NCBI GenBank assembly: GCA_965207445.1
Contig: CBDBLX010000002.1
Location: 2,231,849-2,295,848 of the forward strand
From: Nitrosopumilus sp.
Lineage (GTDB): Archaea; Thermoproteota; Nitrososphaeria; Nitrososphaerales; Nitrosopumilaceae
Reading direction: 5' to 3'
Length of the DNA stretch: 64,000 nucleotides
Made by a program: the position numbers and the translations under genes. The notes beneath the pieces were generated by a model. That model was not told the origin of the DNA, made no database searches, and saw only the letters and a list, made by a program, of their open reading frames with translations. Shown here piece by piece: positions 561 to 35,597 of the stretch (its first letter is position 1; every line of letters begins with the position of its first letter).

Positions 561-2717
561 GTAACGTGTCACCTCCCCCCACCGCATCGTGCCTAAATAA
601 GTTCATACTAACACGAATATCATCTTAGTGAGCATATGTATTATCTGCGGAAAAACACATCTCACAGGAAATGTACCCGTCTACAACACTGTACGCGCAT
701 TATGATGTAACGTAATTTGAGATATTACTAGTACTCTAAGCAAGTGACAAAAGTAAAGTTAACGTGGTTGGGCATTTACGTTTTCATTGTGGTGCATATA
801 CAGGGGGCATTTTTCTGGACATGTGGATAAAGCCAACCTTGTGAGGTTTACATCTTGGTGCAATGACAACAAGTATAGTAGAAACTACAACATGCGAATA
901 AAACCAACCCTGTTAGGTTTACATGTATCATAGATTCATGCTGAAAAGAGTCGCAACAATTCTATATTTGGATCTTTGTCTTGAGCTTTCCATGTCATCA
1001 GAACGCTTGCAATGACACAGTATCTTTTGGCCCCCTCCATCCCCCAAAACCAAAAACTCGAATTCCGTTTGAGTACAAATGGACGTATTCCTCGCTCTGC
1101 TATGTTATTTGTAAGTGACATCTCAGGGTATTGTACTGCAGTAAACAAGTGATCGGAGCAGTTGAATAAATATCTGCCAGATTTAGCTCCACGGTCTAGT
1201 AATTGTTCACCGATAGTTTTCACAAGTTTGATGAGTCCGTTTATTTTAGTTGTGGGTGTGTCTGGTGGCAGTGTTTTTGTGTAGTGATATATGGCCATAA
1301 CTATTCCATACAGGTATGTTGCAGTCGGATCCTTTATCTTTACAGTGTTGTTTTTAATCTTGGTCTTTACATGCGCCCAGCATAATTGATACGTATCAAA
1401 GCAATTGTATGAGGGTGCTGCATCACGTGTCACTTTCAAGTGGGGATACGGATTGGCTTGTTTTACATCATCCATTGAGCGGGATGATAGGGCCTGATAT
1501 TGAATCCATATTTTGTCACCGATTGTAATTCCTAGCCTGCCACTCTTTTTGCCAATCTTTACTGGTGTGTCATCAATATTTCCTGCTGTACTATTTCCGA
1601 TCTCTTTGCCTATACGCTCGTACTCAGAAGCTTTGCAGCTGCTGCCTTTAGTCCTTTTCGTAAAGTATCATGAGCAAATCTTTTGTGATAGTGTATCTCG
1701 ACATCATCAGCAAGTTGGTTCATTGTGTGGACATTAAGTGATGCGCGCGTGAGTTTAACAAGAAAGTGTTGTCCAAATGAAGTATCTGGTATTATAGAAT
1801 CATGCATGCAGTTTATGCTACCACAATTCTCACACCAATATACACGCATGTGACACCATATCTCCTCTAGTTCATTATGGTCGTCGAGTTCATGTAATGT
1901 CTTGTATTCCTCATAAGCTTGCTCTATTTCACAATCACATTCAGGGCATGTGTCTAGTTCAATATCAAATGTTTTGTCTGGATTAAATCGTCTAAATGAT
2001 GGATCGTGTTTTAAAGGTGGTCCCAGTTTGGCAGGTGGTTTGTCTTGCGCTGCTTTTTCTGCACGGTCTTGTTTCTCTTTTTGTATCTGTTTTTGTGTCA
2101 CTGTTTTGTGAGATGTAGGCGTGGCGCCATCGTCATTTGCAGCATCTCTGCGCTCTAAATCTGCAACGCGTCGCTTGGATTCTTCTAGTTGTGCTAATAG
2201 TTCTTGATTTTTGTCTGTAATAATTTTGCATTCATTTCTCATCACGTCTCCATACTGTGCAGTAGATTTTGCCAAATCTTCAAGTATCAGCTCACGTGAT
2301 GTATACCTACCAGTCTGCGCCATAAATGCCAATTTCTGATTTACTAGTATGATGTCAAGTTCTCTTCCACCTAATCTATCAAGTAACTTCCTATTCTCTT
2401 CTTTCAATATATTGGTCTCTTTTTCTTTCTCTTTGAAGTTCTTTTTCAAACTAGCATTTTCATTCAAAACTTGGGACATTGCCTCGTCATAGCTGATCGA
2501 ATCTACATCGACTTTGTTAAATAATTCATCTGTAACTACCTTTTGTTGCTGCATACATTTACTCATTTTTTCTCTATATGAGTAAATGGCAGTATACGTA
2601 TTTAACTACCCGCATACTTTTTTTGCGCCATCTCACAATTTTAGGGATTTATGACGATATCTGTGTGTGTCCATGCCTAGTCCACGTGGTATAAAGAGGG
2701 GGGAGGTGACACGTTAC
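561..2717 (-). mobile_element. IS66-family element
   Basis: Perfect 20-bp TIRs GTAACGTGTCACCTCCCCCC (561-580) and GGGGGGAGGTGACACGTTAC (2698-2717). GTAA termini are typical of IS66. No 8-bp target duplication is visible. Confidence 0.85.
936..2566 (-). pseudogene. IS66 transposase split by a frameshift near 1630
   Basis: ORF 1610-2566 has a coiled coil, PTS...K, GPPLKH and CPEC/CENC zinc ribbons. The shifted frame continues EYERIGKEIGNSTAGNIDDTP into ORF 936-1475, which has QLCWAH and TNNIAERGIRP, the IS66 core motifs. Confidence 0.85.
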
Positions 2718-2802
2718 AAAAAGTTTATTCAACCACGCCATGAGTATACCTACGAAACTTGCCAGATTTCAGTTACCAACGATTAACGCAGAAGACCCAA
2801 TG

Positions 2803-4341
2803 TTAACTGTATAGTGCGATTATGAGATTCACAACTCTATTGATCTCTTCTATGGTGGCATATAGTGTGTCATATGTCTCTTGGAGTGTATTATAATTCT
2901 CTTGGAGTGTATTATACTTCTCTTGGAGTGTATTATACTTCTCTTGGAGTGTATTTAGTGTTGTATTATACTCTGCTTGTAGTATGTCTTGTTGTTGTTT
3001 TAAAGCGGTGTCTACATATGCTTGATCAAATGGCGTTGTGTCTTGTGTGTTTGTATTATTGGTGGGTGGTGTGACTACTGGTGGTGTCGGTGTCTCTGCT
3101 GGTGTTGTGCGGGTTATCTCAACACTGCATGTATCCCATGTGCCTGAATATCTTATGAAATCTTCTTCATAGTATGATAATTGTGGTTGTAAATTAGTCG
3201 TAAGTGAGTTTTTTGATGTGAGTTTGACTCCATTTTGATCATGTAAGAATAATGTGTAGTAGACGGCTCTGTATTCCTGTGAATCTCGGTTTATGAACGT
3301 GGTATTAATGTCAATAGAATCGCCGAATCCTTCTGAACATTTTGTAATAGTTGTGTCTATATTGCCTATTGGTGGTGTCGGTGTCTCTGCTGGTGTTGTG
3401 CGGGTTATCTCAACACTGCATGTATCCCATGTGCCTGAATATCTTATGAAATCTTCTTCATAGTATGATAATTGTGGTTGTAAATTAGTCGTAAGTGAGT
3501 TTTTTGATGTGAGTTTGACTCCATTTTGATCATGTAAGAATAATGTGTAGTAGACGGCTCTGTATTCCTGTGAATCTCGGTTTATGAACGTGGTATTAAT
3601 GTCAATAGAATCGCCGAATCCTTCTGAACATTTTGTAATAGTTGTGTCTATATTGCCTATTGGTGGTGTCGGTGTCTCTGCTGGTGTTGTGCGGGTTATC
3701 TCAACACTGCATGTATCCCATGTGCCTGAATATCTTATGAAATCTTCTTCATAGTATGATAATTGTGGTTGTAAATTAGTCGTAAGTGAGTTTTTTGATG
3801 TGAGTTTGACTCCATTTTGATCATGTAAGAATAATGTGTAGTAGACGGCTCTGTATTCCTGTGAATCTCGGTTTATGAACGTGGTATTAATGTCAATAGA
3901 ATCGCCGAATCCTTCTGAACATTTTGTAATAGTTGTGTCTATATTGCCTATTGGTGGTGTCGGTGTCTCTGCTGGTGTTGTGCGGGTTATCTCAACACTG
4001 CATGTATCCCATGTGCCTGAATATCTTATGAAATCTTCTTCATAGTATGATAATTGTGGTTGTAAATTAGTCGTAAGTGAGTTTTTTGATGTGAGTTTGA
4101 CTCCATTTTGATCATGTAAGAATAATGTGTAGTAGACGGCTCTGTATTCCTGTGAATCTCGGTTTATGAACGTGGTATTAATGTCAATAGAATCGCCGAA
4201 TCCTTCTGAACATTTTGTAATAGTTGTGTCTATATTGCCTATTGGTGGTGTCTGCGCTTGTGCTTGTACCGCGCCTGTGGTCATTAGAGCCACTACAGCA
4301 ATGAGTCCCATTATGGTGGTCATGTACCGTCTTGTGTTCAT
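2803..4341 (-). CDS. Secreted protein with four identical 97-aa Ig-like (FxLYD-like) repeats and a C-terminal coiled coil
   Basis: Signal peptide MNTRRYMTTIMGLIAVVALMTTGAVQA. Each repeat contains TLFLHDQNG (FxLYD-like) and 2 Cys. C-terminal YNTLQEK heptads. Start chosen at ATG 4341, which has a TATA-like motif upstream. Confidence 0.8.
   Translation of the reverse strand: MNTRRYMTTIMGLIAVVALMTTGAVQAQAQTPPIGNIDTTITKCSEGFGDSIDINTTFINRDSQEYRAVYYTLFLHDQNGVKLTSKNSLTTNLQPQLSYYEEDFIRYSGTWDTCSVEITRTTPAETPTPPIGNIDTTITKCSEGFGDSIDINTTFINRDSQEYRAVYYTLFLHDQNGVKLTSKNSLTTNLQPQLSYYEEDFIRYSGTWDTCSVEITRTTPAETPTPPIGNIDTTITKCSEGFGDSIDINTTFINRDSQEYRAVYYTLFLHDQNGVKLTSKNSLTTNLQPQLSYYEEDFIRYSGTWDTCSVEITRTTPAETPTPPIGNIDTTITKCSEGFGDSIDINTTFINRDSQEYRAVYYTLFLHDQNGVKLTSKNSLTTNLQPQLSYYEEDFIRYSGTWDTCSVEITRTTPAETPTPPVVTPPTNNTNTQDTTPFDQAYVDTALKQQQDILQAEYNTTLNTLQEKYNTLQEKYNTLQENYNTLQETYDTLYATIEEINRVVNLIIALYS
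2877..2955. repeat. 21-bp tandem repeat (~4 copies) encoding YNTLQEK heptads
   Basis: TCTCTTGGAGTGTATTATA(CT) repeated. Confidence 0.9.
3080..4252. repeat. Four identical 291-bp tandem repeats
   Basis: Unit starts GGTGGTGTC at 3080, 3371, 3662, 3953 and 4244 (partial). No differences seen by eye. Confidence 0.95.
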
Positions 4342-4707: not shown

Positions 4708-4764
4708 GGAATTTATGTCAATTGTTAACACAATATACATACATACATTATAAAAACATCATAC

Positions 4765-5999: not shown

Positions 6000-6095
6000 T
6001 AAATCATAATATGTATAGTTAAATTGCAAGATTGCATTGTAATTAAAAGAGATCTCAAGTGCACAACGATATTACTAGTGTCATTGTGATTAGAA

Positions 6096-6974: not shown

Positions 6975-9067
6975 GGGTCTTCTGCGTTAATCGTTGGTAA
7001 CTGAAATCTGGCAAGTTCCGTAGGTATACTCATGGCGTGGTTGAATAAACTTTTTAAAAATTCACAATTTAAAATCTCACATAATGTATAATTCTAGTGA
7101 ATATTTTCTCAAAATATGGGTGTGTTGACATCGTTTTTGCACATGAACGTTAAATATACACGTCGTGAGATCTCATTGAGATAGAAAAAATGAGACCAAA
7201 GAGTGTACAACAAAAGATTACTGATTATGAATTTAACCCTGATGGTGTTCAAGATTCAAATGATTTGGGACAAAAACGCCCAAAGCTAGATCGTCTTAAA
7301 CGATTTAGAGGATGGTTTACACTAAAACATGACAGGACAGTAAGACTAGCAACATGGATGCAAAAACGTGTCTCATGGAGCAAGGGCGCAGAAAAACGAG
7401 GCCAAAAAGCCATGCGTATACTGGAAAAACCAGAGAATATAACGTGCATTAAATCTGGTCATTATGCAGTCAAATCGCAGTCCCAACCAGGTCTGTGGTA
7501 TGACGTTATCCGGAAATCCACCGGAAGATATGAGTGTAACTGCTTTGATTACGAATACAGAAAAGCTAAATGTAAACACATTTTGGCGGTGACAGCACAT
7601 GTAGTGGACAATGAAGCAGAAAAAATTATGAAAAACGTATCAGAGATAGACAGTAAAGAGACAAACGTTACAAATCGTTGCACTACCATTACAGAATATT
7701 GTACCAAAAAATACGATGGCGGTGATCAATTACCACACACAGAATCAAAGCAAGAAAAAGATACAGACACACAAACAAAATCTGAATTATATGATGATAA
7801 TGGTGGTGATCAATTACCACACACAGAATCAAAGCAAGAAAAAGATACAGACACACAAACAAAATCTGAATTATATGATGATAATGGTGGTGATAATGGT
7901 GGTGATAAATTTACAGATTCTGTTGAGCCTACGCACATCTACCCAATAGATGAAAAACACCCTCCAAAGTGTAAACACTGCAATAATACGCACATAATCA
8001 AATATGGGACACAGGAATGGACTGTAAAAGAAACAGGCCAAAAAAAGAAAGAACAAAGATGGCAGTGTAGTAAAAAAGACGGTTGTGGTGCAGTATTTGT
8101 ATACAGAGCAGGCATGGAACGTATGCGTTGTAGCAAAAAAGACGTAGCAGATATGTTAAATGATTATTTCAAAGGACACTCATCACCCGCAATTTCTGAC
8201 ACACTAAAATCCCAAGGACTAGAAAGACATCACACCAGCATCCTCAGAACAATTGCAAAATACACCAAAATGATCAATACATACACAATGAAACTCCCAT
8301 TACCAAATCTTGGCGATAGATTTCATGTAGATGAAGTATATGTAAAGATAGATAATAAAACGCATTATCTGTTTACTATAATTGACTACAAGACGCGGGT
8401 ATTGCTTGCAATTGAACTGGGAGGTAAAAAGGATGAATTTAATGCAACGAGCCTGTTTACAAATGCCGCAATACGTGCAAATAAGATACCCGTAGAGATT
8501 ATCAGCGACGATCTTGACTCATACAAAGTTGCATTTAGAGTAGTATACGCACAACTTAGCCCACTTGATGATCACTGTGAGCACATTTCAGATCCTGATA
8601 AAATTACACAATTGCAACGACAAAAAAAGACACAATGTATACACAAAGACAAAGCAGGAATAAGCAAAACTCATGACAAGGGAAACAACAATGTCATTGA
8701 AAGTTTTAACAATATACAGCGAATCTGTTACAATCCTCGACGCGGAATCAAAAGCACAAAATCTGCCATAGCCATGGGCTTTAGTGTGTGGTACAACTAT
8801 GTACGTCCACATGGATCATTAGGAGGTACACCCGCAGAAGCAGCAGGAATAACAATACACGGCAATAACAAATGGATTACACTCATCGGCAATGCTGGCG
8901 TGGCAGCCATGGGAGGAGCAGTGGCCTGAGTCTGTACAACCTTGCCATGTGAATCCAAGGGTCTTGAGCCAGTCATGCAACGACGGTGATATTACGGGAC
9001 GCATCAATGTCGCACAAGCGACAATGGTAGCAACGTGCAAGTTACCAACGATTAACGCAGAAGACCC
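6975..9067 (+). mobile_element. Complete IS6/IS1-like insertion sequence
   Basis: 28-bp perfect TIRs GGGTCTTCTGCGTTAATCGTTGGTAACT (6975-7002 and 9040-9067). 9-bp target duplication TTGTTTAAT at 6966-6974 and 9068-9076. Confidence 0.93.
7190..8929 (+). CDS. DDE transposase with SWIM finger, IS1-like zinc ribbon and IS6-like catalytic domain
   Basis: CNC...CKH (SWIM); CKHC..IIKYG..QRWQC..CG; HVDEVYVKI, YLFTIID, IISDD, NNVIESFN, YNYVRPH. Confidence 0.9.
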   Translation: MRPKSVQQKITDYEFNPDGVQDSNDLGQKRPKLDRLKRFRGWFTLKHDRTVRLATWMQKRVSWSKGAEKRGQKAMRILEKPENITCIKSGHYAVKSQSQPGLWYDVIRKSTGRYECNCFDYEYRKAKCKHILAVTAHVVDNEAEKIMKNVSEIDSKETNVTNRCTTITEYCTKKYDGGDQLPHTESKQEKDTDTQTKSELYDDNGGDQLPHTESKQEKDTDTQTKSELYDDNGGDNGGDKFTDSVEPTHIYPIDEKHPPKCKHCNNTHIIKYGTQEWTVKETGQKKKEQRWQCSKKDGCGAVFVYRAGMERMRCSKKDVADMLNDYFKGHSSPAISDTLKSQGLERHHTSILRTIAKYTKMINTYTMKLPLPNLGDRFHVDEVYVKIDNKTHYLFTIIDYKTRVLLAIELGGKKDEFNATSLFTNAAIRANKIPVEIISDDLDSYKVAFRVVYAQLSPLDDHCEHISDPDKITQLQRQKKTQCIHKDKAGISKTHDKGNNNVIESFNNIQRICYNPRRGIKSTKSAIAMGFSVWYNYVRPHGSLGGTPAEAAGITIHGNNKWITLIGNAGVAAMGGAVA

Positions 9068-17713: not shown

Positions 17714-17880
17714 TGTATGAGATCGCTCTGTGGCGTATTTATCTGATCGCGATCACTCAAATTTGTCAAGCACAAAAGGATTTCAGTTCATGGATTGTAC
17801 GGTGGTGTATTTATCTGATTATAATCATAGTAATCAACACGACGACGATGATAACAGCAGCAACAACAACAGCAAAAAAG

Positions 17881-18855: not shown

Positions 18856-18860
18856 CACGT

Positions 18861-20451: not shown

Positions 20452-20557
20452 CTGATATGATTAAAGATCCGATATTTTGATTGATATTCATCTCGAAGTT
20501 GAACACATATTATAAATACAAAATATTAGAAAACTATCGGATCTTTAATGAAACTAT
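20452..20557. mobile_element. MITE family D (~106 bp, IS630-type ends), intact copy
   Basis: ATTAAAGATCCGATA ... TATCGGATCTTTAAT inverted ends, matching the TIRs of the IS630 at 22099-26590. Confidence 0.85.
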
Positions 20558-20601
20558 TACGCATACAGTAACACAAAAAGATGTATGTAAAACTGCTGAA
20601 A

Positions 20602-21516: not shown

Positions 21517-21662
21517 GTGTTTGTGTTTGTTGTAATAGATTTTAGCGTTTCTGAATAAATGTGACTGTACATATTTTGACCATATGTCGTCTGTTCAATT
21601 TTGTATGTTATTATATTATATAAAAAATATAATTGGGTACACATTGACAGTTTACAAAATTT

Positions 21663-21811
21663 CTCCGAGTCAAGATCCATGACTTGTATAATCATTCAAA
21701 AATAACTATTGCCCAAATGCATCGCATGCACGATACGCGATATACTAAAATGGATATGACCAAATACAAGTATGTAATTTTATTATTATATCCAAAGAGA
21801 TCAGTTCACAC
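21663..21811 (-). mobile_element. MITE family B, copy 3
   Basis: Reverse complement of the family-B interior, ending CAGTTCACAC. Confidence 0.78.
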
Positions 21812-22467
21812 CAAAATTTTACTAGTTAAGACATTGGACTGCTGCGCAGACATAATCCAACTTGCAGATCATCCACGCAAACGCCAAGATCGTGGGTATA
21901 TTCTCAAGTCAACTGGTGTCTGGCGTCGTGGCACCTGAAAGCCGCTGCCGATAAAATCAATTACAATAATGTCACCGCCACCGCAGAGGCCGTATATGCT
22001 ATCGCCGCAGAATGCATCACGACATCATCTGAACTTCATACAGGCACATCATCTCACCTGCACACCAAGGTTCAAAATGTCAAGATCGCTACCGCATAGT
22101 GATTTCATTAAAGATCCGATGGTTTTTACAGGCGATTTCAGCTAGGCAGTTGTGTACGGAGTGGAAAAATAGACGTAATTGGCACTATGTGTAGCAGATA
22201 CCGTGTGGTGGCCAGAAGAGCGACGAGGAATTGGGTGTGTATGTCAGTGGCAGGTATTGGGTAATTTTTGATCATTTGGTTGAATTAATTTGACCTCGAG
22301 TGTCAAAAGGTGATGTGGCCATTAGTGTTTGTTGAAAGACAAAAAATGGTACATCGACTAGTATTCGCCGATGCCATATTTAATGACTCTGCAGGCAGAT
22401 CGTCTTGCGGCACCGACGAGGCGCATATTTTTTGAAGACAGCCTATGTGGGAAGAGGGGGCGGGTTC

Positions 22468-23115
22468 ATGCCCGACGTGTCCCTGGAAGATCTAAAAGCC
22501 GCCTACCGCAAAGAGCCTCCGGGCAAGTCCCGGGACAGACTGCAGACAGCAGTTGGGCGAAAAAAAGGGCAAGAGTGAGTCTGCAATAGCCGCCCAACTC
22601 GGACGCAGCCAGAGCGTCATATCTGAGTGGCTCAACAGGCTACAGTCAAAGGGATTGGGGGGCAGATATGACCGCAAGAGCCCCCGGCAGGCCGTACAGA
22701 CTCACAAAAAACAACAAGAACAGGCAAAGGCCAATTTGAGTAGTGAACCGATGCAGAGCGGCTTTGAGCGTGGGACATGGACTGCCGCCTTGTTTGCATT
22801 GCATCTGGCAAACATTTTTGACGTCCAGTACACGTGGACCGGGGCCCTGGCGCTAGCTCACAAGATGGGCTTTTCAATAAGAATACCCACAGGACAATTC
22901 ACCACAAGTCTGCCAGTCCATTAGAAGAACTGCATTATGTACACGACACAATACACGCCATCATGGCGCACGCCCGCGCCGGCTATGAGGTGTTCTGTAT
23001 GGACGCCTCTGCAATCACAAACTCGCCGTATGTCGCGCGCGGACTACATCTCCGAGGAGGCTCTGAGACTGTAAATGTCAACTTTTCAAAAACAAGTATA
23101 AAGATGCTGGGTGCA
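22468..23115 (+). pseudogene. IS630 transposase, N-terminal part with several frameshifts
   Basis: RDRL...IAAQLGRSQSVISEWL...KSPGRP...GTWT...HKMGFS...VFCMDAS...RG...KMLGA across frames. Confidence 0.82.
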
Positions 23116-23365
23116 TAATAGTTTCATTAAAGATCCGATAGTTTTCTAATATTTTGTATTCATAATATGTGCTCAACTTCGAGATGAATATCAATCAAAA
23201 TATCGTATGAACCAAGCTCTTTGGACACAATAATAAAATCACATATCTGTATTTAGTCACATCCCTGCTTGTATAATCCTGCATCTGCGTGACGCTTGAC
23301 TTGGTGCTATTTTTAATGACCCTATCAGTCATAGAGCTTGGTTCACACAGATAACTCTGCATTAT

Positions 23366-23458
23366 TACATATAAAGAACCATTCAGTAGATGTGATCAAC
23401 TACATATAAAGAACCATTCAGTATTAGTGAACACTCACATATAAAAAACATCACAGCA
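23366..23458 (+). repeat. Three 35-bp units, each with a TATAAA box, upstream of the ATPase
   Basis: TACATATAAAGAACCATTCAGTA at 23366 and 23401; degenerate copy at 23436. Confidence 0.8.
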
Positions 23459-23482
23459 ATATTAAAACAATATATAATATAA

Positions 23483-25014
23483 TTGTCAATAGAACCTATG
23501 ATTCATGAAAGCATACTACGAGAATCAAATCCATGGTGGGAGAATCCAGCTAACATTCAAAATGATCAAAAACTACAAGAGTGGGAACAATCTGAGATCA
23601 GATATATTCCACGTATTATGCATGAGATCAAATATAACTTTGAGCCATCAAACACTGTAGTATACTCTCTTCGTGGACCACGGCAGGTGGGCAAGACAAC
23701 ACTAGTCAAGATGCAGATAAAGGAGTTTCTAAACAATGGTATTTCAGCATGGAATATTCTGTACTATTCTGCTGATCTGCTAGACACACCACAAGATGTA
23801 GTAGATATCACAAGGACATATCTGAACATTAGCTCCCTGTGGCGCAAAGGAGACCGTTATTACATATTTCTCGATGAGATCTCATCTGTACCACAATGGC
23901 AAAAAGGTATAAAGTGGCTGGTGGACATGAATATATTAAAAAACGCTACTGTCATGGTTACGGGCTCTCATTCTATAGATATAATGAGATCTTCTGAGCG
24001 GCTTCCTGGTCGTAGGGGTGTTGTAAATGGCAGTCATGACAAAATGCTACTTTCTATGAGGTTTTCAGAATATGTAACGGTTACAAACAACACCATAAGG
24101 AAAATAATGGTAAAAAATGATATGTTTTCTATCAGTACTAGAAGAGGCATATTTGCAAAGCTATTAAACAATGAGATAGATGAGAGGCTATACTTGTTTG
24201 AGCAGTATCAAGACGAGTTGGACTATATTTTGCAAAGTTATCTGATAACAGGCGGTATTCCAAAAATAGTTGATGAAAAGATAAAGACCGGAAACATAAG
24301 TGAATCCACAAAAAATGCATATTTTGAGAGTTTAATGGGGCAGTGGGGTAGTTTTCAAAAAAACAAAACATTTCTGAAACAATTTTGTATGGCAATAATC
24401 AAAGGCATGGGTACACACATGTCGTGGAATGGACTCTTCAAAGAGGCTGATCTTGGTAGCCCAAACACCGCATCAGATTATGCACATACCCTAAAGGAAA
24501 TGTTTGTACTTTTAATAATTCACATGTACGGAACAGACAAAAAGATCCCATTGATCAAAAAAACAGAAAGTTCTACTTTCAGGATCCCTTTTTCCTGCAC
24601 ATGCTCAATACAGTGGCAGGTCTTGACACCACCTTTAACACTAAGATAATAAACTACACTGCCCAAGAAGAGAATCAAGGTAAGATTCTTGAGGGAGTTG
24701 TTGCAGACCACCTCATAAGATGGGCATTTGATCTGAGTGGCCAAAGACAATCTTTTGACTATTTTGATCATGTGTTTTATTGGAAAGATGAAAAAGGACG
24801 AGAGGTAGACTTTATTTTACGTGCAGGTGGATTTGCAGAAGTTCCGATCGAGTTAAAATACAGAAATAAAATAAAGTTCAGAGAACTTTCTGGACTGTGT
24901 AGTTTTCTTGGCAAGACGGGCACAGAGAGTGGCATTGTAATCTCAAAGTCAGATATGCAGTCCAGATCAGAGTATGCAGTGGTGCCAGCATGTATCTTTT
25001 TGTTGTTATTGTAA
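23483..25014 (+). pseudogene. AAA_14/DUF4143-type ATPase with C-terminal PD-(D/E)xK-like domain, frameshifted at A7 (24557-24563)
   Basis: NPWW, GPRQVGKTT, IFLDEI, VTGS, YLITGGIP. After the shift: RKFYFQDP...EGVVADHL...FYWKDEKGREVDFI...PIELK. Confidence 0.88.
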
Positions 25015-25544
25015 TGTCTATAATGGTGGTGGTGAGGATTTGTATACGTGCCCAAAGTTTCTATTTGTGCTTTGGTGGTACCGAGACACAGTAAAAATTA
25101 ATATATTTTTTATGTTGTGTATTGGTGCGAGCCTAGTTAACAATCCCTTGATTGAAGATCATTTTTACACAGCCAGTGGGTGGGCATGTAATGCAAAAAT
25201 TACTAGTCAGTAAATCCACCAACACACAGGTTATTCATATATACCTGTCATAGTGCCAGTCACAATACCAGTCACAATACCAGTCACAATGCCAGTCATA
25301 TGTACTTGCAAAGATACAAATCAAACATTCCATGTGACCTGAGATTTTTGGATGCAATAATAAAATTAGATACTTGTGTTTGATCACATTTTTGTCGGTA
25401 TATTGAATATTGTGCATGCAATGCATTTGGCTAGGAGTTATTTTCAAATGAGTGCATCTGTCATGGAGCTTGGTTCACACAAAATATCAGATCTTTAATC
25501 ATATCAGTAAGCATTAATGACTATCCATAACCCTGTTTTTTATC

Positions 25545-26126
25545 ATGTTTAAAAAATCATCTGTGCTACTGTTCTCAGGGACATTCCTGCTGTGCCTGTT
25601 TTCATTTTTTTCTGCATTCCCACAAAACCCCGGAGAGGTAAACTCGGTCTTTTTGTTCACGTACCACTGTATGTTAGATACCGGAGAATACGGGCCATAC
25701 ACAAGCATGAGGGAGTCGTCAGATAACTGCTACTATAACCTGTGGCTGTCGCTACTGGTGGCAGGATACGGGGGTGCAGGGATGTTCCTGACAGTGCATT
25801 CACTGAAATCAATAAGGAAAAAATCACCTGAAATGTTCAAAAAAATGGCTGTACAGCTGTTCTCAGGGATATTCCTGCTGTGCCTGTTTTCGGTCTTTTC
25901 TTCGATTCCGCAACTCCAGGGGGACGTAAACACGGTCCACTTGGTCACGTACCACTGCATGCTGGAGACCGTGGGGAATTCACAGTCGTTGGCAGATAGC
26001 GTCGTGGAGGCAGCAGAAGAATGCTACTTTGACCCGAGGCTGTCGCTGCTAGTCATTGGATATGGAGCAACAGGGATTTTTTTAATTGTATATTCGGTAC
26101 GAAGAATAAAAAAATCGATCAAGTAG
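25545..26126 (+). CDS. Membrane protein made of two ~96-aa repeats (4 TM helices)
   Basis: MFKK..LFSG.FLLCLFS.FS..PQ..G.VN.V.L.TYHCML.T occurs twice, 288 bp apart. Confidence 0.8.
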   Translation: MFKKSSVLLFSGTFLLCLFSFFSAFPQNPGEVNSVFLFTYHCMLDTGEYGPYTSMRESSDNCYYNLWLSLLVAGYGGAGMFLTVHSLKSIRKKSPEMFKKMAVQLFSGIFLLCLFSVFSSIPQLQGDVNTVHLVTYHCMLETVGNSQSLADSVVEAAEECYFDPRLSLLVIGYGATGIFLIVYSVRRIKKSIK

Positions 26127-26164
26127 CCTCCCATCAAAATACTGTGCGGGCATCATGTGTATAG

Positions 26165-26356
26165 ATCCAATGGCGCGAGATAAAGCGCGCACTGGCAGGC
26201 AGATACTACAAGGGCAGTTTTCCAGAGATTCAAAAGTCCATACTACACATGATGGAAAAAGGCGAGGTGGGAACAGTCAGGCTGCTAGAGTACATGCGCA
26301 ATGCCATACAAGACGCAAAGAACAACGCGCTCATATCCGAACTCCGGGCTGCATGA
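26165..26356 (+). pseudogene. IS630 transposase C-terminal fragment
   Basis: Manual translation IQWREIKRALAGRYYKGSFPEIQKSI..., the segment that follows the IS630 LNPIE motif. Confidence 0.7.
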
Positions 26357-26971
26357 ACTGCATATTACGCAAACTAGGTGGGGTCCGGGTGAGGCTGTGC
26401 GACGCACAGATCGCACTATAATCAGGACGGCTGCGCACATACTTTTTGCCACGCCCAAATACACGGCTGGTATGGACATGTCCATGGAAAAATCATGGAT
26501 CCGGTGTGGATTACCTCACAGGTCCTGCCTGATTTCCCAATATATGATTACAAGAATGTCTAAAAACTATCGGATCTTTAATGAAACCACTACACATGAC
26601 TTTTTAATATAGTCATATTACTAAAAAACTCACCACACGTTATACTATTTTTACACCATACACATCCACTCCACCATGTTGTACTATTCGCCCATCTGAC
26701 ACAATACACAAACTACTCTTAATATCATGAGTCAATCAGATGATTTTACCTCTCACACAGTGACGTGACGTGACATAGTATGCCACATGCATACATACAC
26801 ATACATACATACACATACACACACCGGTGACTCTGCCACATGCCATAACGGCTGTTTGATGCACACCTAAGCGGCAGAATGAGCGTGGATAGCAGTTGGT
26901 ATGTGGAAATGAACGCTTGTATTATCATATTTTCAATTAATATATATCTGCCGCGCTTTGTGCGCTAGTAT

Positions 26972-28411
26972 ATGAATATGAGTGTGCCTGATGAACCAGA
27001 TTGCCCACTTCTTTATGCTACTGATCCAAAAACTCGAATTAATGCAGGACATGTCAAAGTATGTGTTATTGGAATAGGAAGGATAGGACATGTTATTGGA
27101 ATAGGAAGGATAGGACTTCCAACTGCGCTCTCTTTTGCACATGCAGGTTTTACGGTAACTGGATTGGACATAAACGAATCTCTTGTCTCAAAGATACGCT
27201 CAGGGGTGTTTCCACTAGATGACGAACCTGGGTACGAGGAGATATTTCAAACTGTAATAAATACAGGTAAATTTTCTGCCACCACTAATGCGACAAATGC
27301 AATACCAAATTCTGATATAATAATAATTTCACTACCAACCCCGATGGACGCTTCAGGCATTCCATACTATACGGCTCTAGAATCCATGGCAACACAGCTA
27401 AATTGTTTACTGACGCTTGGTTCCATTGTAGTTGTGGAGAGTACAGTAGAGCCCAACTTTGTAGAATCAATAATGTCTCCGTTGATAGAAGGTGACCGTA
27501 TGCGCTTAAAAACTTCTGAGAACTTTGGACTTGGAGTATGTCCGGAGACTGCCAATCCAGGTGAGATCCTCAAAAACTTTCAGAGTTTGCCACGTCTTGT
27601 GGGTGCCATGGATACACGTACTGCAGATATAATATCAAAGGTATATGGACATGTGTTTAATGTTGAACTAGTCATGATGCCTGACTGTCGCACAGCCAAT
27701 GCAGTAAAACTTACAACAAATGTATTTCGGGATATTAACATTGCATTTGTAAACGAGCTTGCAATACTCTTTGAAAGACTCGGTATCAACACGCACACCG
27801 TATTAGAGGCGGCAAAGAAAAAGTACAATTTTGAGCCTCATTACCCGGGAGCAGGAGTCGGTGGACCGTGTCTACCTGTCAACTCGTATCAGCTACTTAA
27901 CACCGCATCACATCTACCGGGAGGTGATTCGATGCTCAGAATCATTCGCACAGGACGACGTGTCAACGAATCTATGCCATCACATGTAGTAGATATGATA
28001 TATGACGGACTTGCCGAGATAAACGTGACTCCAGACTCTTCAACTGTTGCAATACTTGGCCTCTCCTACAAACCAAATGTTCGAGACGTACAGCTTGCAC
28101 CATCAGAGCAGATTATAGATATGCTAAGAACTCGAGGAAGTAGTGTTCGTGCATATGACCCCCACTATACAGATGAGAACATATTTGAGGTACATGTCGA
28201 AAAATCTGTTACGGACGCACTCCGAGGCGCAAATGCGGCAGTGTTGGTCACTGATCATGACGAGTTGTGTGCGTTGGATGCATCTACAATTAGAGATGCA
28301 GGGTGCAGAGTGTTTGTAGATTGTAAAGGTGTAACAAATCCAGATGCAGTAGAATCAGTAGGTCTGGTGTATCGGAGTGTGGGTCAACGCGGCACACGTA
28401 AAGCATGCTAA
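26972..28411 (+). CDS. UDP-N-acetylhexosamine 6-dehydrogenase (WecC/WbpA family)
   Basis: GIGRIG, ESTV, CPE..NPG, KLTTNVFRDINIAFVNE, PGAGVGGPCLP, LGLSYK. Confidence 0.92.
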   Translation: MNMSVPDEPDCPLLYATDPKTRINAGHVKVCVIGIGRIGHVIGIGRIGLPTALSFAHAGFTVTGLDINESLVSKIRSGVFPLDDEPGYEEIFQTVINTGKFSATTNATNAIPNSDIIIISLPTPMDASGIPYYTALESMATQLNCLLTLGSIVVVESTVEPNFVESIMSPLIEGDRMRLKTSENFGLGVCPETANPGEILKNFQSLPRLVGAMDTRTADIISKVYGHVFNVELVMMPDCRTANAVKLTTNVFRDINIAFVNELAILFERLGINTHTVLEAAKKKYNFEPHYPGAGVGGPCLPVNSYQLLNTASHLPGGDSMLRIIRTGRRVNESMPSHVVDMIYDGLAEINVTPDSSTVAILGLSYKPNVRDVQLAPSEQIIDMLRTRGSSVRAYDPHYTDENIFEVHVEKSVTDALRGANAAVLVTDHDELCALDASTIRDAGCRVFVDCKGVTNPDAVESVGLVYRSVGQRGTRKAC

Positions 28412-28423
28412 TAGTGATGCTAG

Positions 28424-29674
28424 TTGAACCACAAACTCCCAAATACTGCAGCCTATGATCCATCCTCGACTCTATATTATTTGACATTACGTTACAACCC
28501 ATTACTAGCACCCACACTACCGCGCATACACTCATCAGATATGCGGCCACTACATACTACACCACCGTCATTGAGCGTATTGCAAGACATGATTGTCAAA
28601 TCTATGAGATTGTCACTTTGTGGTGTTAATTCAGATGTGAAAGTTGCACTGGCTCTAAGTGGTGGTGTCGACTCTACACTAATGCTGGCACTCTTACGAA
28701 GATACTTTCCAAACCTAGACGTACTTGCCATAACTATAAGATTTGATGGTGCATATGATGAATCTGCACATGCAGCACGTACCGCAGAGGCGCTTGGCGC
28801 CGATCATATTATAGTAGATGTTGATAACCCCTTGCAGGATCTTCCAGCTGCAATACATACAGTATCATTACCAATGTGGGATCTACACGTGTACAATGTT
28901 GTCAAAGAGGCATCTGCACAATCTGCAGATATACTTGTGTCTGGTGATGGCGGTGATGAATTGTTTGGAGGATACACATTCAGGTATAAAAATTTTTTAA
29001 ATGTAATTACTAGTTATGATGTAGATACAATTACGCCTGATCAGAAAATACACGCATACTTGAACAATCATATACGTGATTTTGTAGATGAACAAAACGA
29101 TCTGTTTGATTCACGAATGAACTTTTCTTGGAAGAACATATATGATATCCTCTATCCATATTTTGACAATAAGTTGGAGTCACTTGAACAGGTCTTTTTG
29201 GCAGACTATAATGGTAAGATGTTATACAACTTTTCTCAGATTGTGAAACCTCTGTCGTCTCACTTTGGGGTCAAGATTGTGGCGCCGCTCTTATCTCCAC
29301 AGATAATTAAATACGCCATGAAAATCAAACCAGAACAAAAATATGACAATGTAAATGAGATAGGAAAGTTACCACTTCGAAGTATACTTGGCATACTTGA
29401 TGCAGAGCATCTAACCTCAGATGAAAAGGCGGGATTTTCACCCAATACAGTGTCATATTGGCACAAGTATGGATATGACATCTGCTCCACATATCTTAGT
29501 ACTGCTAAAATCATACGCGATGGCTGGATTAGTAAGAGATGGGTTGAATCCCATCTACGTCGCGACCTAACAGACGTCAGGTACATAAACAAATTTTTGG
29601 GGTTGTTGGCATTTGAAATATGGTATAAAATATTCATAACAAAAGAGATAGAGCCAAATATACAGCTTACCTAA
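28424..29674 (+). CDS. Asparagine-synthetase-like ATP pyrophosphatase (no N-terminal glutaminase domain)
   Basis: LSGGVDS, SGDGGDELFGGY, GKLPLR, KAGF. Confidence 0.85.
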   Translation: MNHKLPNTAAYDPSSTLYYLTLRYNPLLAPTLPRIHSSDMRPLHTTPPSLSVLQDMIVKSMRLSLCGVNSDVKVALALSGGVDSTLMLALLRRYFPNLDVLAITIRFDGAYDESAHAARTAEALGADHIIVDVDNPLQDLPAAIHTVSLPMWDLHVYNVVKEASAQSADILVSGDGGDELFGGYTFRYKNFLNVITSYDVDTITPDQKIHAYLNNHIRDFVDEQNDLFDSRMNFSWKNIYDILYPYFDNKLESLEQVFLADYNGKMLYNFSQIVKPLSSHFGVKIVAPLLSPQIIKYAMKIKPEQKYDNVNEIGKLPLRSILGILDAEHLTSDEKAGFSPNTVSYWHKYGYDICSTYLSTAKIIRDGWISKRWVESHLRRDLTDVRYINKFLGLLAFEIWYKIFITKEIEPNIQLT

Positions 29675-30762
29675 TTCATCACAGACTTTGAAATATCTAA
29701 AAAGTCAACTGCGATCTTGTTCCAGTTAAAGTTTTTAGATACAAATTTGCGACCAGCTTTGCCCATCTCCTTTGCGCTTTTTTCATCATTTATAAGTGTA
29801 CATATACCTTTAACTATTTTATCAGGGTTTTGAGCATCAACTAGGATTCCAGATGTACCATCTTGCATGATCTCTGGTATGCCCCCTACCCTTGTCGCCA
29901 AGACTGGTTTTTCCATAAGTTGAGCTTCTTGTAATGTCAGAGGTGACATATCTATTCCACTGATCAGTGCATATATGTCAATCTCTGCAAGATATTGCTT
30001 TACTTGGTGTGGGTACTCTAATGCACCAAGCCATTTAAAATTATCATATTTAGAAAGTGTCGAAAGTATTTCGTTTCTGTATGGTCCATCACCTGCCCAA
30101 TAAAACATAATTTCAGGCAGTTCTTTGATCACCTTTGACAATATGAGCATCTCACGTGCCTTGCCCCATATGTTAGCACTTTGTAACAATCCAACACATG
30201 GATGAGATATATTCATCTCGCATAATTTGTGTTCGGTGTTAGAAGTGTTACCAGGATCCCATTTATCGGGATTTATTCCTTGGTATAAAGTAAACGACTT
30301 TTTTTTAGGATAACGTTTTTTCACGATATTATCAAGATAATTACATATAGGTAAAATGGCAGAGGTATCTTGAAATAATTTTTCTTCCATTCGAGATTTG
30401 ATATACCGTCCTATCCTTTTGATTGGGGTACGGCCCAGAGTCTCTTTATACCACTGCATTTCTGACCAATAGTCACCGCGCAGGTGTGTTAACAAAGGCA
30501 ATCTAGCATCAACCACTGCCTTTGCAAAATGTCCATGTCGGTCAACAAAGACTAGATCAGGATTAAACTCTTTAAAAAGTCTGTTTGCATGTTTTGCAGT
30601 TTGAAACCATGAAGATATTTTACGGTTTGGGAATGTATCATAAATATCAGAGTCTATAACTACTTTGCACTCTATTTTGTTTTTTGATAAAATGTTTGCA
30701 AATTCATTTACATGTGAAAGTTTTGAAGTATCAACTCCAAAAAGAATTCTCAATTGTGTCAT
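29671..30762 (-). CDS. GT4 glycosyltransferase
   Basis: DMSPLTLQEAQLMEKPVLATRVGGIPE, MGKAGR..V...FNW. Confidence 0.9.
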   Translation of the reverse strand: MTQLRILFGVDTSKLSHVNEFANILSKNKIECKVVIDSDIYDTFPNRKISSWFQTAKHANRLFKEFNPDLVFVDRHGHFAKAVVDARLPLLTHLRGDYWSEMQWYKETLGRTPIKRIGRYIKSRMEEKLFQDTSAILPICNYLDNIVKKRYPKKKSFTLYQGINPDKWDPGNTSNTEHKLCEMNISHPCVGLLQSANIWGKAREMLILSKVIKELPEIMFYWAGDGPYRNEILSTLSKYDNFKWLGALEYPHQVKQYLAEIDIYALISGIDMSPLTLQEAQLMEKPVLATRVGGIPEIMQDGTSGILVDAQNPDKIVKGICTLINDEKSAKEMGKAGRKFVSKNFNWNKIAVDFLDISKSVMN

Positions 30763-30950
30763 AATATAATCACTCTCTCCACGTATCAATTATATCTTAT
30801 AAAGTTTTGATTTCCTTGACTAGTCCCAAAAGTAGGTCATATCTATCGGAGTAGTTTGTGAGTATGAGATGCGTTATTATCACCACGCTGTATTAAGATA
30901 CTATATATGAATTTTTATGCACACATACAAGTTGAATCATAATTTTCCAT

Positions 30951-31029
30951 GTAACCGTTCAACTCCTTTCCAAATTTAGACACAGATTCATCGCCTAACG
31001 TTTGGCACAGGTATGAGTTGAACGCTTAC
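30951..31029 (+). mobile_element. MITE family C, copy 5
   Basis: GTAACCGTTCAACT ... AGTTGAACGCTTAC. Confidence 0.85.
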
Positions 31030-31079
31030 TCGTCGCAATTGGGATCAAGTTTTAAGTGAGGTGTAGGGATGGATTGCAA

Positions 31080-32018
31080 ATGGTACGCGTCGTACAGATA
31101 GGCATGGGCGGGTGGGGCAGGAACCACGCACGTGTACTCTCACATCTCGGGGCCCTTTGCGCCGTGTGTGACATAAATGCAGAGCGCTGCAAGCAGTTCT
31201 CACAACAGTATTCGGTACCGGGTTATGATTCGGTAGATAATCTGCTGGACGGAGAGGAGTTTGATGCGGCGCTCGTCTGTACACCCACAAAGACGCACAC
31301 AGACATAGCCATAAAACTACTGAACCACAAAAAACACACATTTGTCGAAAAACCGATGACATACAACTCTAGGGATGGTGAGAGCCTGCGTGAACTGGCC
31401 GATAGAAACGGTGTCATACTAACGTGCGGGTACATAGAGCGGTTCAATCCCGCTGTGGATATAGTAAAAGATTTTGTAAGCTCAAAAAAGTACGGCGATC
31501 TTATGATGTTGGAGTTTCACAGGGAGAACCAAATGCCCCTCCACATAAAGGATGTGGGAATCATCTATGATACCGCAGTACACGACATTGACACAGCCAT
31601 GTGGTTGTTTAACAGCACGCCCAACGTGGTGTTCGCAAGCGCAGGCCAGATAAGGCACAAGCATGAGGATTTTTCCTCTATAATGCTGGGATTTGACGAC
31701 AACAAGGTTGCAATGATACTCTCCAACTGGCTGACACCTGTAAGAGTGCGTAGGTTTGATGCCATCTGCACCGAGGCAGTAATCTCCTCAAACTTTATTA
31801 CGCAAGAGATCAAGGTGGAAAAAGATGATGGCATGCAGATAGTGGAGAACGAAAAGCAAGAGCCACTACTGCTGGAAATACAGAACTTTATAGGTGCAGT
31901 AAATGGACATGCGGAACTTCGGGTAAAGCCACGACACGCAATCAACGTGACAAAGATAGCAGAATCTGCACTCTTGTCTGCCAAGAGAGGAGTCCCAGTC
32001 TATCTGGATCTAAAGTAA
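31080..32018 (+). CDS. Gfo/Idh/MocA oxidoreductase (WbpB-like)
   Basis: GMGGWG, TPT..H, VEKP, ERFNPA, DTAVHDID. Confidence 0.9.
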   Translation: MVRVVQIGMGGWGRNHARVLSHLGALCAVCDINAERCKQFSQQYSVPGYDSVDNLLDGEEFDAALVCTPTKTHTDIAIKLLNHKKHTFVEKPMTYNSRDGESLRELADRNGVILTCGYIERFNPAVDIVKDFVSSKKYGDLMMLEFHRENQMPLHIKDVGIIYDTAVHDIDTAMWLFNSTPNVVFASAGQIRHKHEDFSSIMLGFDDNKVAMILSNWLTPVRVRRFDAICTEAVISSNFITQEIKVEKDDGMQIVENEKQEPLLLEIQNFIGAVNGHAELRVKPRHAINVTKIAESALLSAKRGVPVYLDLK

Positions 32019-32147
32019 GAGTGGTGGTTGAGGATATTAAAGCATCCAGATTGTCTAGTCTGGGTCCCGGTCCATCTGGATCTAAAGTAAGAGTAGCAGG
32101 GCACACTCCACCACGCATCGTACGTGACTGTGAGTGTCCATCCACCA

Positions 32148-32819
32148 CCAGTAGATTGCAAGTATCGACGTTAACATGCAGCTTCGTTCCCTTGTGCCCG
32201 ATGTGAACGTGGCTCCATTTGTAGACCTTTCAAGTCCAATAGATTGCATGTATCGACGTTAACATGCAGCTTCGTTCCCCTGTGCCTGGTCCCTTTACGC
32301 GCAAACGAATCTTATGGCGTGATGTTATTGGTGGTGTGGGCAATACTAACTGGTGGTGCCTCCAATATTCTCTGATATGATTTCTAACATTTTGTTACAA
32401 GCATTCAATGTGTCAGTATAAGACGAGTCGCCAACCACTTAGTAGTGTTGCACATGCTGGAACTTTTGTCGGATCAGATATATTGTCTTTGCATGATCAG
32501 AATATGTCTTTGTGACTTGTGTACGGTTGGCACACATCATTAGCAGATAACAAACAATGTCTTTTGCAGCATACCTTGCATTAAATTTAGCATAAAACGA
32601 TGAGGGGATTGTCGTGAGTAATTCCAAACTGAGTAATTCGGAACTGATGTGATTAAATACAGTTTTTAGAATATCAATATGCAGTGTATATTTAGATCGA
32701 CGTGGTGTATCCACAATATCTTTACACGCGTTTATTTTTATGATGTGTTTTGGACAAATTTACATAACAAGATCAGTTTTTTGAGATATGGGACTTTTAG
32801 GTCACATTTTGAACTACTG
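32148..32819 (-). pseudogene. Decayed transposase mosaic (ISH3-like left end and N-terminus, IS5-like GTKLHVNVD motif)
   Basis: CACATTTTGAACTACTG at about 32803-32819 resembles the ISH3 TIR. ORF 32439-32714 loosely resembles the ISH3 N-terminus. GTKLHVNVDT is encoded twice at 32148-32286. Confidence 0.55.
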
Positions 32820-34180: not shown

Positions 34181-34467
34181 GTCAACCTCTTCACATTTAA
34201 CACGTATTGTGATATTGTTTATGTGCATGTATAGCATCGCGCTGACGTCTATTGGACTCTACATGGTGCCACCAATGCATAGTACCGGACACCGGTGGAG
34301 ACTAGTGCCTATGATTGCATATTTTGCATCCAAGTACACCATACGTATAAGTTCATATTCCTTAAGACCGTACTCCAATTTTGTTCTTATGGGATTCAGG
34401 TAGGGCAAATGGACTCACATCATTATGCAGTCATAATGTTTATGTACGGTCCAGGAAATTTCCAGTT

Positions 34468-35034
34468 ATGATCCATGCCGACAAACCGATGAATTTTGCC
34501 GAGTGTTTTGAGGACAGCGAACGGGGTATAATGATCGGCAAGGGCACAAAGATAGAACCGGGGGCCGTTATATACGACGGCTGTGTCATCGGTGAAGGTT
34601 GTATTATAGGCACGTCAGCGGTTCTTAAGCAGGGCACCAAAATTGGTGACCACAGTGTGTTTGGCACGCTATCGGCCACTGAGGGTGGCACCAAAATTGG
34701 ATCATGGACTACCATATTCAGTCAATGTCATTTGGCAGCAGACATGGAAGTAGGCGACCGCGTGTTCGTCGGTCCACTCTTCTATTGCGCAAACACACCA
34801 CAGATCAGTAAAGGACGATTTGGGTACCCGAACAGCACACATGATACACGTATGACACCGGCAATACGAGACGGGGCACGACTCGGAGCCCACGTGGGAT
34901 TAGCGCCAGGAGTAATCATTGGTGAAAACGCCATGATCGACATGGGTTGCTTGGTCACAAAGGACGTTCCGGCTGGCACACATGTCAGGGCCGGCAGTGA
35001 GATCACGGGCCGTGTAATGGGCGTTGCTGATTAA
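34468..35034 (+). CDS. Hexapeptide-repeat N-acetyltransferase (WbpD-like)
   Basis: IGKGTKI/IGEGCII/IGDHSV repeats, VFVGP, GCLVTKDVP. Start is inferred. Confidence 0.85.
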   Translation: MIHADKPMNFAECFEDSERGIMIGKGTKIEPGAVIYDGCVIGEGCIIGTSAVLKQGTKIGDHSVFGTLSATEGGTKIGSWTTIFSQCHLAADMEVGDRVFVGPLFYCANTPQISKGRFGYPNSTHDTRMTPAIRDGARLGAHVGLAPGVIIGENAMIDMGCLVTKDVPAGTHVRAGSEITGRVMGVAD

Positions 35035-35597
35035 TCTGTTGCTTCGCGGGTTTTGTTCTGTGAAGCTGACCAGCTCAAAATTTTCTGTCTCATGTTTGTG
35101 TATATTTTAATTGGTTCTGATACGTAAAAGTGCCAAAAAATCGGTTGGTTTGAGAACACAGTACAATGAGACAGACACGGCAAGAAAAAGGAGAAAAGAC
35201 AGTCATGTAGATGCGCGTGTCAAGTCAAGGCGTATATGAAAGAGTGACACCGGCTACAGATCAAGCAGTGGCACGACTGCAAGGTGTACGAAAAGCGGCG
35301 TCACAATTGCATCATGTATGGACGGCACTCTGGTGGATGTTGTCGATCATTTCAGAGTAAAACCTGACATCGCACGTACTATTCAGAGAAAAATCAGATC
35401 CTGGGGGATGTTGTCGATCATTTCAGAGTAAAACACTACAGCATTCTGACACGCATACGCCGATCTTGTGACTCCCGGACCCAGTCTAAAAGCCACATAT
35501 GTGTTTATAGTGCATATATTGTTTGAGTAAGATCATGTTGTGTTGGACAGCGCCCAATCAATCGTTTGACTTTTAAGATCTGCATCTACCAAGTAAC

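Follow-up and report, generated by a model that had tools for sequence, protein, structure and literature searches.

Spacer-sized insertions with repeat-length target duplications outside the CRISPR array of a Nitrosopumilus genome that carries a type I-G system

A 64,000-nucleotide (nt) stretch of the genome of Nitrosopumilus sp. (GenBank assembly GCA_965207445.1, contig CBDBLX010000002.1, positions 2,231,849 to 2,295,848 of the forward strand; hereafter the window) contains short direct duplications of local sequence that each enclose a small insert: five units with a start-to-start period of 71-72 nt (at 819, 17721, 19100, 31992 and 35330) and one with a period of 88 nt (at 32148). We propose that these units, and others like them across the genome, are insertion scars, very probably made at sites outside any CRISPR array by the host's own type I-G Cas4/Cas1 fusion together with Cas2. 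The duplications and inserts have the dimensions of the repeats and spacers of a type I-G array in the same genome, the target sites recur elsewhere as single copies without an insert, and some inserts come from remote loci. Cas1, tied to the scars by co-occurrence, is most likely the enzyme responsible, and a staggered cut at the target most likely the mechanism.

Results

Units in the window

An original prediction, made from the letters of the window, had listed five units of duplication plus insert. All five are present in the window sequence, with coordinates re-delimited as below, and its remark that the geometry is nearly constant while the duplicated sequences differ holds for the four listed units of period 71-72, each of which has its own local 'repeat'. 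A repeat search of the window yielded one further, weaker pair, at 17721. Over 64 kb and periods 70-74, chance would give about 0.002 matches of that type (a rough hand estimate); a paralog or protospacer for this unit was sought in the genome and none was found. At scar 3 the two cores (19100-19128 and 19172-19200) are identical at 29/29 positions with a period of 72, and the 29-mer occurs only twice in the window at up to three mismatches, with zero occurrences expected. The pattern is far beyond chance. The units are as follows, none with an assigned strand.

Scar 1, duplication copy 1: 819-853, no strand; 35 nt, 30/35 identical to 890-924, period 71
Scar 1, insert: 854-889, no strand; 36 nt, spacer-sized
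Scar 1, duplication copy 2: 890-924, no strand; pairs with 819-853
Probable old scar: 17721-17747 and 17793-17819, no strand; 27-nt copies, 22/27 identical, 45-nt gap, period 72
Scar 3, duplication copy 1: 19096-19128, no strand; 29-nt perfect core at 19100-19128, outer edge short by about 4 nt
Scar 3, insert: 19129-19163, no strand; 35 nt, when copy 2 is given its true edge
Scar 3, duplication copy 2: 19164-19200, no strand; 37 nt, consisting of CAAGTAAT and the 29-nt core
Scar 4, duplication copy 1: 31992-32022, no strand; 31 nt recognisable, 29/31 identical to copy 2, period 72
Scar 4, insert: 32023-32063, no strand; 41 nt as delimited, original edges uncertain
Scar 4, duplication copy 2: 32064-32094, no strand; pairs with 31992-32022
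Atypical 88-nt unit: 32148-32198 and 32236-32286, no strand; 51-nt copies, 48/51 identical, period 88
88-nt unit, insert: 32199-32235, no strand; 37 nt, spacer-sized
Scar 5, duplication copy 1: 35330-35363, no strand; 34 nt, 33/34 identical to copy 2, period 71
Scar 5, insert: 35364-35400, no strand; 37 nt
Scar 5, duplication copy 2: 35401-35434, no strand; pairs with 35330-35363

A genome-wide peak at the period of the host array

The source genome (G000; 2.61 Mb in two contigs, C1 and C2; 39.6% GC) was scanned for direct repeats 25-200 nt apart, with 11-nt seeds and ungapped X-drop extension. Pairs of at least 22 nt with a gap of at least 15 nt and a period of 25-200 were kept; the CRISPR array, tandem arrays and low-complexity repeats were excluded. 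In the whole genome 143 isolated pairs remained, and their periods are not evenly spread: 14 pairs have a period of 71, 24 of 72 and 7 of 73 (45 in sum), and 59 fall at 69-75. The remaining 84 of the 143 are scattered over about 169 period bins at about 0.5 per bin, for the most part at multiples of three, the periods that coding repeats would give. The sharp peak near 71-72 that had been proposed as a check is thus found, at 71-73, and it matches the periods of 71-75 in the host's array. Eleven pairs were removed as tandem-like or short, and so were those that had more than one neighbour; 56 filtered candidate scars were retained, among them the doubtful C2:55916, which lies inside an element of about 40 copies and has a 22-nt gap. 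Outside periods 69-75 there was no enrichment of spacer-length inserts with other duplication lengths, eight such pairs having inserts of 33-39 nt. The integrase seems to have made about fifty insertions of this kind across the genome.

The host system itself is readily classified. The sole CRISPR array in the genome (C2:68640-79634) comprises 122 repeats of 36 nt and spacers of 35-39 nt, with unit periods of 71 (10 units), 72 (36), 73 (52), 74 (19) and 75 (3), and is interrupted by an IS66-family insertion. To one side lie Csb1/Cas7g, Csb2, Cas3g and a Cas3-extension protein; to the other lie Cas2 and a Cas4g/Cas1g fusion of 565 amino acids (C2:79808-81797). Matches to NCBIfam models are cas4g_cas1g, 731.5 bits (cut-off 560); cas3_GSU0051, 735 (400); Csb2, 275 (45); Csb1, 76 (38); and the Cas3-extension family, 131 (65). 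With a Cas4/Cas1 fusion, Cas3g, Csb1/Cas7g and Csb2 beside the array, the system is of type I-G. A search for cas1 or casposase genes had also been proposed. It returned one Cas1, the Cas4g/Cas1g fusion, which adjoins the array together with Cas2 and is the only Cas1 match in G000; no second Cas1 or casposase was found in that genome. A scan of genome contigs with the Cas4/Cas1 protein gave a single relative, in a Dehalococcoidia MAG at 57% identity. Neighbours of the cas locus are eIF2-gamma and the small and large subunits of primase, genes that identify the host as an archaeon. Contig C1 (121 kb) corresponds to C2:1-119,500 as a variant with 98-99% identity. It is without C2:61087-81864, and hence without the entire type I-G cas locus and array, and appears to represent a co-occurring strain that has no CRISPR-Cas.

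Duplications of repeat length and inserts of spacer length

Among the 73 pairs at period 69-75 that were present before tandem-like and short pairs were dropped, duplication lengths peak at 36-37 nt (19 of the 73) and inserts are mostly 33-38 nt long, with a peak at 35-37 nt. The duplications therefore have the length of the host repeat and the inserts that of the host spacer. Scars in the window agree where they could be delimited, with inserts of 36 nt (scar 1), 35 nt (scar 3) and 37 nt (scar 5) and duplications of 35 nt (scar 1) and 37 nt (scar 3). Outside the edges of the duplications, identity drops to the random level of 25-30%.

Delimitation proved important at scar 3, which at face value consists of a 29-nt duplication and a 43-nt insert. 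In an alignment with 11 paralogous copies of the insertion sequence (IS) in which the scar lies, the ancestral sequence reads ...GCAAGTATGGTG... and copy 1 reads GCAA followed directly by GGTG. The 8 nt that precede the core in copy 2 (CAAGTAAT) are ancestral IS sequence according to the paralogs, so that copy 2 extends over 19164-19200 (37 nt) and the insert over 19129-19163 (35 nt); the apparent 29+43 resolves to 37+35. We had considered a special ruler that keeps the period constant while duplication and insert lengths compensate for one another, in view of perfect pairs of 29+43 and 30+42. That idea dissolved on closer delimitation: the duplication at 19100 is, on paralog alignment, truly one of 37 nt with a damaged outer edge, and several apparent duplications of 30 nt are really 36 nt long, interrupted by a 1-nt indel or by a pair of neighbouring mismatches. 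Where a duplication exceeds 36 nt, the excess fits what spacer ends would share with the flanks by chance (a geometric fit, by hand arithmetic).

Empty sites and insertion polarity

For 17 of the 56 scars, paralogs span the junction with a single copy of the duplicated sequence and no insert. The sites thus occur elsewhere in an empty form, and the polarity of the change is that of an insertion. Scar 3 sits in a decayed copy of an ISH3-like insertion sequence, and 27 paralogs span the empty junction, none of which carries the insert. The original prediction had taken 19100 to be an insertion with a long target duplication, and had placed the ancestral single copy in an intact IS near 60020-60045. 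Both statements stand, given the 27 empty paralogs, the 37-nt duplication and a site core that occurs once at 60026-60040, on the minus strand:

ISH3-like IS copy, empty site for scar 3: 59920-60163, minus strand; site core 60026-60040, transposase open reading frame (ORF) 58966-60162

Its label 'ISH3' is only partly borne out: the best NCBIfam match of this transposase is NF033541 (ISH3), at 160 bits below the curated cut-off of 225, and the ORF matches Pfam DDE_Tnp_1, for which reason we call the element ISH3-like.

Scar 1 lies in an element that adjoins a fragment of an IS66-family transposase. The same 36-nt insert, flanked by 35-nt duplications, is found at window position 819 and at C2:479466, C2:1094704 and C2:1511841, and the 35-nt site is present once, with no insert, at C2:1891856 and C2:1540424. 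Filled in four copies and empty in two, the site was evidently hit in one event, and later multiplication of the element produced the further copies of the scar. In the strain-variant contig C1 the site of the perfect scar at C2:111042 is empty, whereas the scar at C2:27186 is present in both C1 and C2.

These comparisons bear on whether the units are functional in themselves, as orphan mini-CRISPR arrays, genes for small RNAs or a family of tiny mobile elements that make long target duplications. Their repeat-spacer-repeat form and the four copies of scar 1 would suit such a role. Yet the 'repeat' differs from unit to unit and is local sequence that is single-copy in the paralogs, the inserts are unrelated except for copies of the same event, and the element that holds the copies of scar 1 is itself repeated and IS-associated and is also found free of the scar. 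Nor was a third copy of the 'repeat' found within 400 nt of any of the 56 scars, so that they do not show the shared repeat of a functional array. We consider a function of this kind very improbable.

Sources of the inserts

Six of the 56 inserts match unique loci elsewhere in the same genome, over the insert only and with unrelated flanks, at identities of 35/35, 35/36, 32/33, 33/35, 34/38 and 28/32. By comparison, full-length matches in the genome outside the array are lacking for all 121 canonical spacers, whose best matches are 17-22 nt. This contrast between 6 of 56 and 0 of 121 would follow if a spacer taken from the cell's own DNA is lethal when it sits in a working array but does no harm at an ectopic site. 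The inserts form no family and share no sequence except among copies of the same event; they are heterogeneous captured DNA rather than one element. For the five window units of period 71 or 72, no second copy of the insert was found in the genome besides same-event copies; the insert of the 88-nt unit is 30/37 identical to a repeated coding region at C2:570989-571025.

The remote origin of inserts also bears on an alternative that the original prediction had offered, namely templated repair, or replication slippage, with inserts drawn from their own flanks. It had noted 7-8-nt pieces of flanking sequence in three inserts, and the longest word that an insert has in common with its own context averages 6.38 nt, against 6.02 (standard deviation 0.12) for mismatched contexts, a difference due in part to a single 14-nt outlier. 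However, words of at least 7 nt are shared in 25% of mismatched pairings of insert and context, which places those pieces at chance level. Identity beyond the duplication edges is random, six inserts are full-length copies of remote unique loci, and slippage would not fix one period at unrelated sequences. An origin from the flanks is accordingly hard to credit.

The same unit type in congeners

Parts of three congeners were scanned with the same method: G009 (1.2 Mb), G051 (1.2 Mb) and G002 (0.4 Mb). Orthologous empty sites cannot be read in them, as the closest genomes are other species with 65-77% DNA identity, in which intergenic sites are unalignable. G009 carries a homologous frame of the size of Cas4/Cas1 and an array with 36-37-nt repeats and a period of 72-75. 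Its 1.2 Mb yielded 21 isolated pairs with periods from 70 to 75, nearly all of them free of mismatches; their duplications measure 36-40 nt and their inserts 32-38 nt. One of these pairs, at 820343, is a 36-nt tandem repeat and was set aside as a false positive. G009 also has a second system with 30-nt repeats and a period of 66-67, and despite this 30-nt-repeat array no isolated pair occurs at period 66-67 in the 1.2 Mb. Three inserts of G009 match its own DNA, in one case its array.

That case, a 36-nt insert at G009:C1:1872101, is identical to a stretch of the array near G009:C1:1995547 at an offset of 2 nt: it includes the last two bases of the repeat and is without the last five of the spacer. 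Either array DNA or an overlapping protospacer was the source of the capture.

G051 has the same system and eight pairs at periods 71-74 in 1.2 Mb, of which about five are scars; the three at 526592, 890924 and 892456 belong to a 72-nt tandem coding repeat and were rejected as false positives. A multi-copy gene family with tandem 72-nt coding repeats occurs in G051:C1 at about 1406773-1406949, at 1838707-1838955 and elsewhere. Coding repeats of 72 nt mimic the period of the scars and call for caution in automatic scans. In G002 there is no Cas1 match, and no isolated pair at periods 69-75 occurs in 0.4 Mb. The peak is hence present in the three sampled genomes that have a type I-G system and absent from 0.4 Mb of one genome that has no Cas1.

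Elsewhere in the genus, G044, G067, G006, G060, G070 and G014 contain Cas1-domain frames of 410-440 amino acids, with no array adjoining in the loci examined (L020, L021). These frames may be casposases.

Target sites, selection and population variation

The units of the window all lie between long ORFs, save copy 1 of scar 4, which contains the last 8 codons and the stop of a GFO/IDH/MocA oxidoreductase gene (31056-32018), whose reading frame terminates normally within that copy. Scar 5 is intergenic, between ORFs 34381-35034 and 35598-36689. Genome-wide, an open frame of at least 200 amino acids spans 11 of the 56 scars, compared with 60% of random 108-nt windows, a low share that is partly circular since frame-breaking insertions destroy the frame; 10 of these 11 scars have the in-frame period of 72.

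The GC content of the targets (46%) is somewhat above that of the genome (37-39%), and purines are weakly favoured as the first base of the duplication (71% of 66 half-sites). Hairpins at the targets are only marginally more stable (p 0.04 and 0.11), which the GC content probably explains. Two pairs of scars have members less than 200 nt apart among the 56, and the 88-nt unit begins 54 nt past scar 4; both hint at local hot spots.

A short element of about 40 copies (at C2:55916 and elsewhere) shares ...CACAAATTCACCGCCTAACGTCTGGCG..., and the scars at C2:55916, C2:1463861, C2:1135897 and C2:27186 lie in or beside sequences with the motif TAACGTCT. Such sequences may be a preferred target, or this may merely reflect the abundance of the element.

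Population data came from contigs of four runs of one sample, which is maybe the source sample of the genome and hence not independent of the assembly. Contigs of the four runs cover scars 4 and 5 unchanged. Every run also has one contig that leaves out exactly 88 nt by passing from 32151 directly to 32240; its depth is 4.3-14.3, and that of the main form 16-35. An artefact of the assembly graph is unlikely, as the two 51-nt copies share no 31-mer. The form that is shorter by 88 nt is either the ancestral empty allele or the result of recombinational collapse.

Other variation in the window was seen in the same contigs. At 27064-27116 there is a perfect 27-bp tandem duplication, one copy of which is missing at full depth from the contigs of all four runs, so that sample and assembly differ at this point. 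Across 20500-31000, same-sample contigs join 20565 to 23113, 25514 to 30951 and 21791 to 30951, among others; these joins look like structural variants in a cluster of sugar-modifying and glycosyltransferase genes, of the type that co-occurring strains often show. In the assembly, large ORFs contain in-frame tandem repeats at 3075-4252 (291 bp, 4 copies, 99%), 61374-63404 (276 bp, 7.4 copies, 76%) and 7716-7894 (84 bp, 2.1 copies).

Discussion

The ectopic spacer integration that the original prediction had put forward is supported by the period peak, the presence of Cas1, the geometry, the empty sites, the self-derived inserts and the relatives. A simple scheme would account for the scars. 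The integrase would attach the 3' ends of a captured fragment, one to each target strand, at points about 36 bp apart, a distance set by its ruler for the repeat, and the filling of the two resulting single-stranded stretches would duplicate the 36-bp target. Later point changes, indels at the edges and chance identity between spacer ends and flanks would blur the duplication to 28-41 nt while the period stays at 71-73. As each new 'repeat' would be arbitrary local sequence, the units would probably not be processed into guide RNAs, and self-derived inserts would then be harmless and able to persist.

Several observations weigh against attributing the scars to this enzyme. The link to it is drawn from geometry and from co-occurrence, and the three genomes that show the latter belong to one genus and are not mutually independent; the control that has no Cas1, G002, consists of 0.4 Mb of one genome with 52% GC. 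In G000 the mean period of the scars is 71.75, compared with 72.74 for the array (means from period counts). The recognisable duplications at 31992 (31 nt) and 17721 (27 nt) are short, and their original length cannot be checked because these sites have no paralog; conversely, the 51-nt duplication of the 88-nt unit is longer than a 36-bp ruler explains. When the inserts of scars 3, 4 and 5 (three of the six in the window) were compared with viral contigs, as had been suggested, no exact 26-mer match was found, although a test for exact 26-mers is very strict and says little. Ten self-protospacers have no shared flank or motif and no consistent protospacer-adjacent motif (PAM), the three upstream nucleotides being gaa, aac, taa, atc, cat, caa, aaa, cac, aac and tca. 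The TTN/GAA arrangement of type I-G, as far as it is set out in PMC10504553, is not evident beside them; the host system's own PAM cannot be derived, as the canonical spacers have no matches.

Some of these points would equally suit a different, so far undescribed integration of short DNA, by another integrase or a repair pathway, whose geometry happens to coincide with the CRISPR unit. Such a process would be in keeping with the lack of a visible PAM beside the self-protospacers and with a mean period 1 nt below that of the array; Cas1 catalysis is linked to the scars by co-occurrence, and casposase-like Cas1 frames of 410-440 amino acids occur in the genus. On the other side, duplication length, insert length and period all agree with the array that this genome carries, the single Cas1 match in G000 is the Cas4g/Cas1g fusion, and the peak in G009 lies at the type I-G period rather than at the 66-67 of its second array. 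Casposons are transposons mobilised by Cas1-family casposases; they measure many kilobases, have terminal inverted repeats and make duplications of about 14-15 bp. The scars resemble them in that a Cas1-family integrase would have made target-site duplications, and frames of casposase size exist in the genus; the inserts, unlike casposons, are 35-37 nt long and free of inverted repeats. Insertion of a casposon, an IS or a miniature inverted-repeat transposable element was rejected on these grounds, on the unrelatedness of the inserts and on the lack of a second Cas1 in G000. An undescribed process, one of the explanations first offered, is not needed, and we regard it as improbable.

Attributed to the type I-G integrase, the scars are a natural, abundant archaeal case of a known off-target reaction. 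In E. coli that over-produces Cas1-Cas2, spacers are integrated off target with repeat-length duplications (Nivala et al. 2018, as related in the accounts available from PMC7054753, PMC9456107 and bioRxiv 10.1101/148544), and natural evidence in two other species is called circumstantial in the part of bioRxiv 10.1101/148544 available. As in the type I-E neo-CRISPR units of E. coli, as far as these accounts describe them, a spacer-sized insert lies outside the array within a repeat-length duplication, in a cell that has Cas1-Cas2. Unlike those, the scars described here are natural, number about fifty per genome and occur in an archaeon whose type I-G system has a Cas4/Cas1 fusion. They are also seen in two congeners, some of their inserts are self-derived, and they show polymorphism in the population. 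For type I-G Cas4/1-Cas2 of Geobacter sulfurreducens and Methanosarcina barkeri, the available part of PMC10504553 gives an optimal prespacer of a 22-bp duplex with 7-nt overhangs (36 nt), integration at the leader-repeat junction and PAM selection, with GAA on the PAM strand. It also gives a spacer-side site fidelity of 60-70% in vitro, with smears that suggest non-specific integration; that part reports no genomic scars. The Cas4/Cas1 fusion and the 36-nt prespacer, equal to the insert size of the scars, agree with that canonical pathway as far as it is described there, but the scars lie at arbitrary, GC-richer sites and show no PAM. In a literature search on off-target or non-canonical integration and on type I-G, no title or abstract opening described natural genomes with many scars.

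For annotation, lone repeat-spacer-repeat units at the period of the host CRISPR should not be called mini-arrays or new elements, and scar units account for some frameshifts and some 24-codon insertions in genes. Off-target integration has been shown mainly in engineered E. coli. About fifty datable scars would permit the fidelity, target preference and spacer choice of an integrase to be measured in the wild, a measurement to which the fresher scars of the congeners and the co-occurring strain that has no CRISPR would add. The difference in self-derived sequences between scars and array would give a direct view of the autoimmunity filter.

There is perhaps an even chance that the type I-G integrase of this genus strays from its array so often that it acts as a real mutational force, leaving dozens of 72-bp insertions per genome. 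If so, genes would be broken or lengthened by 24 codons, with local clustering, and the scars that survive would amount to an unselected fossil record of adaptation captures. That record would include captures from the cell's own chromosome with no evident PAM, a class of spacer that selection purges from real arrays, and the units could serve as raw material for new CRISPR arrays.

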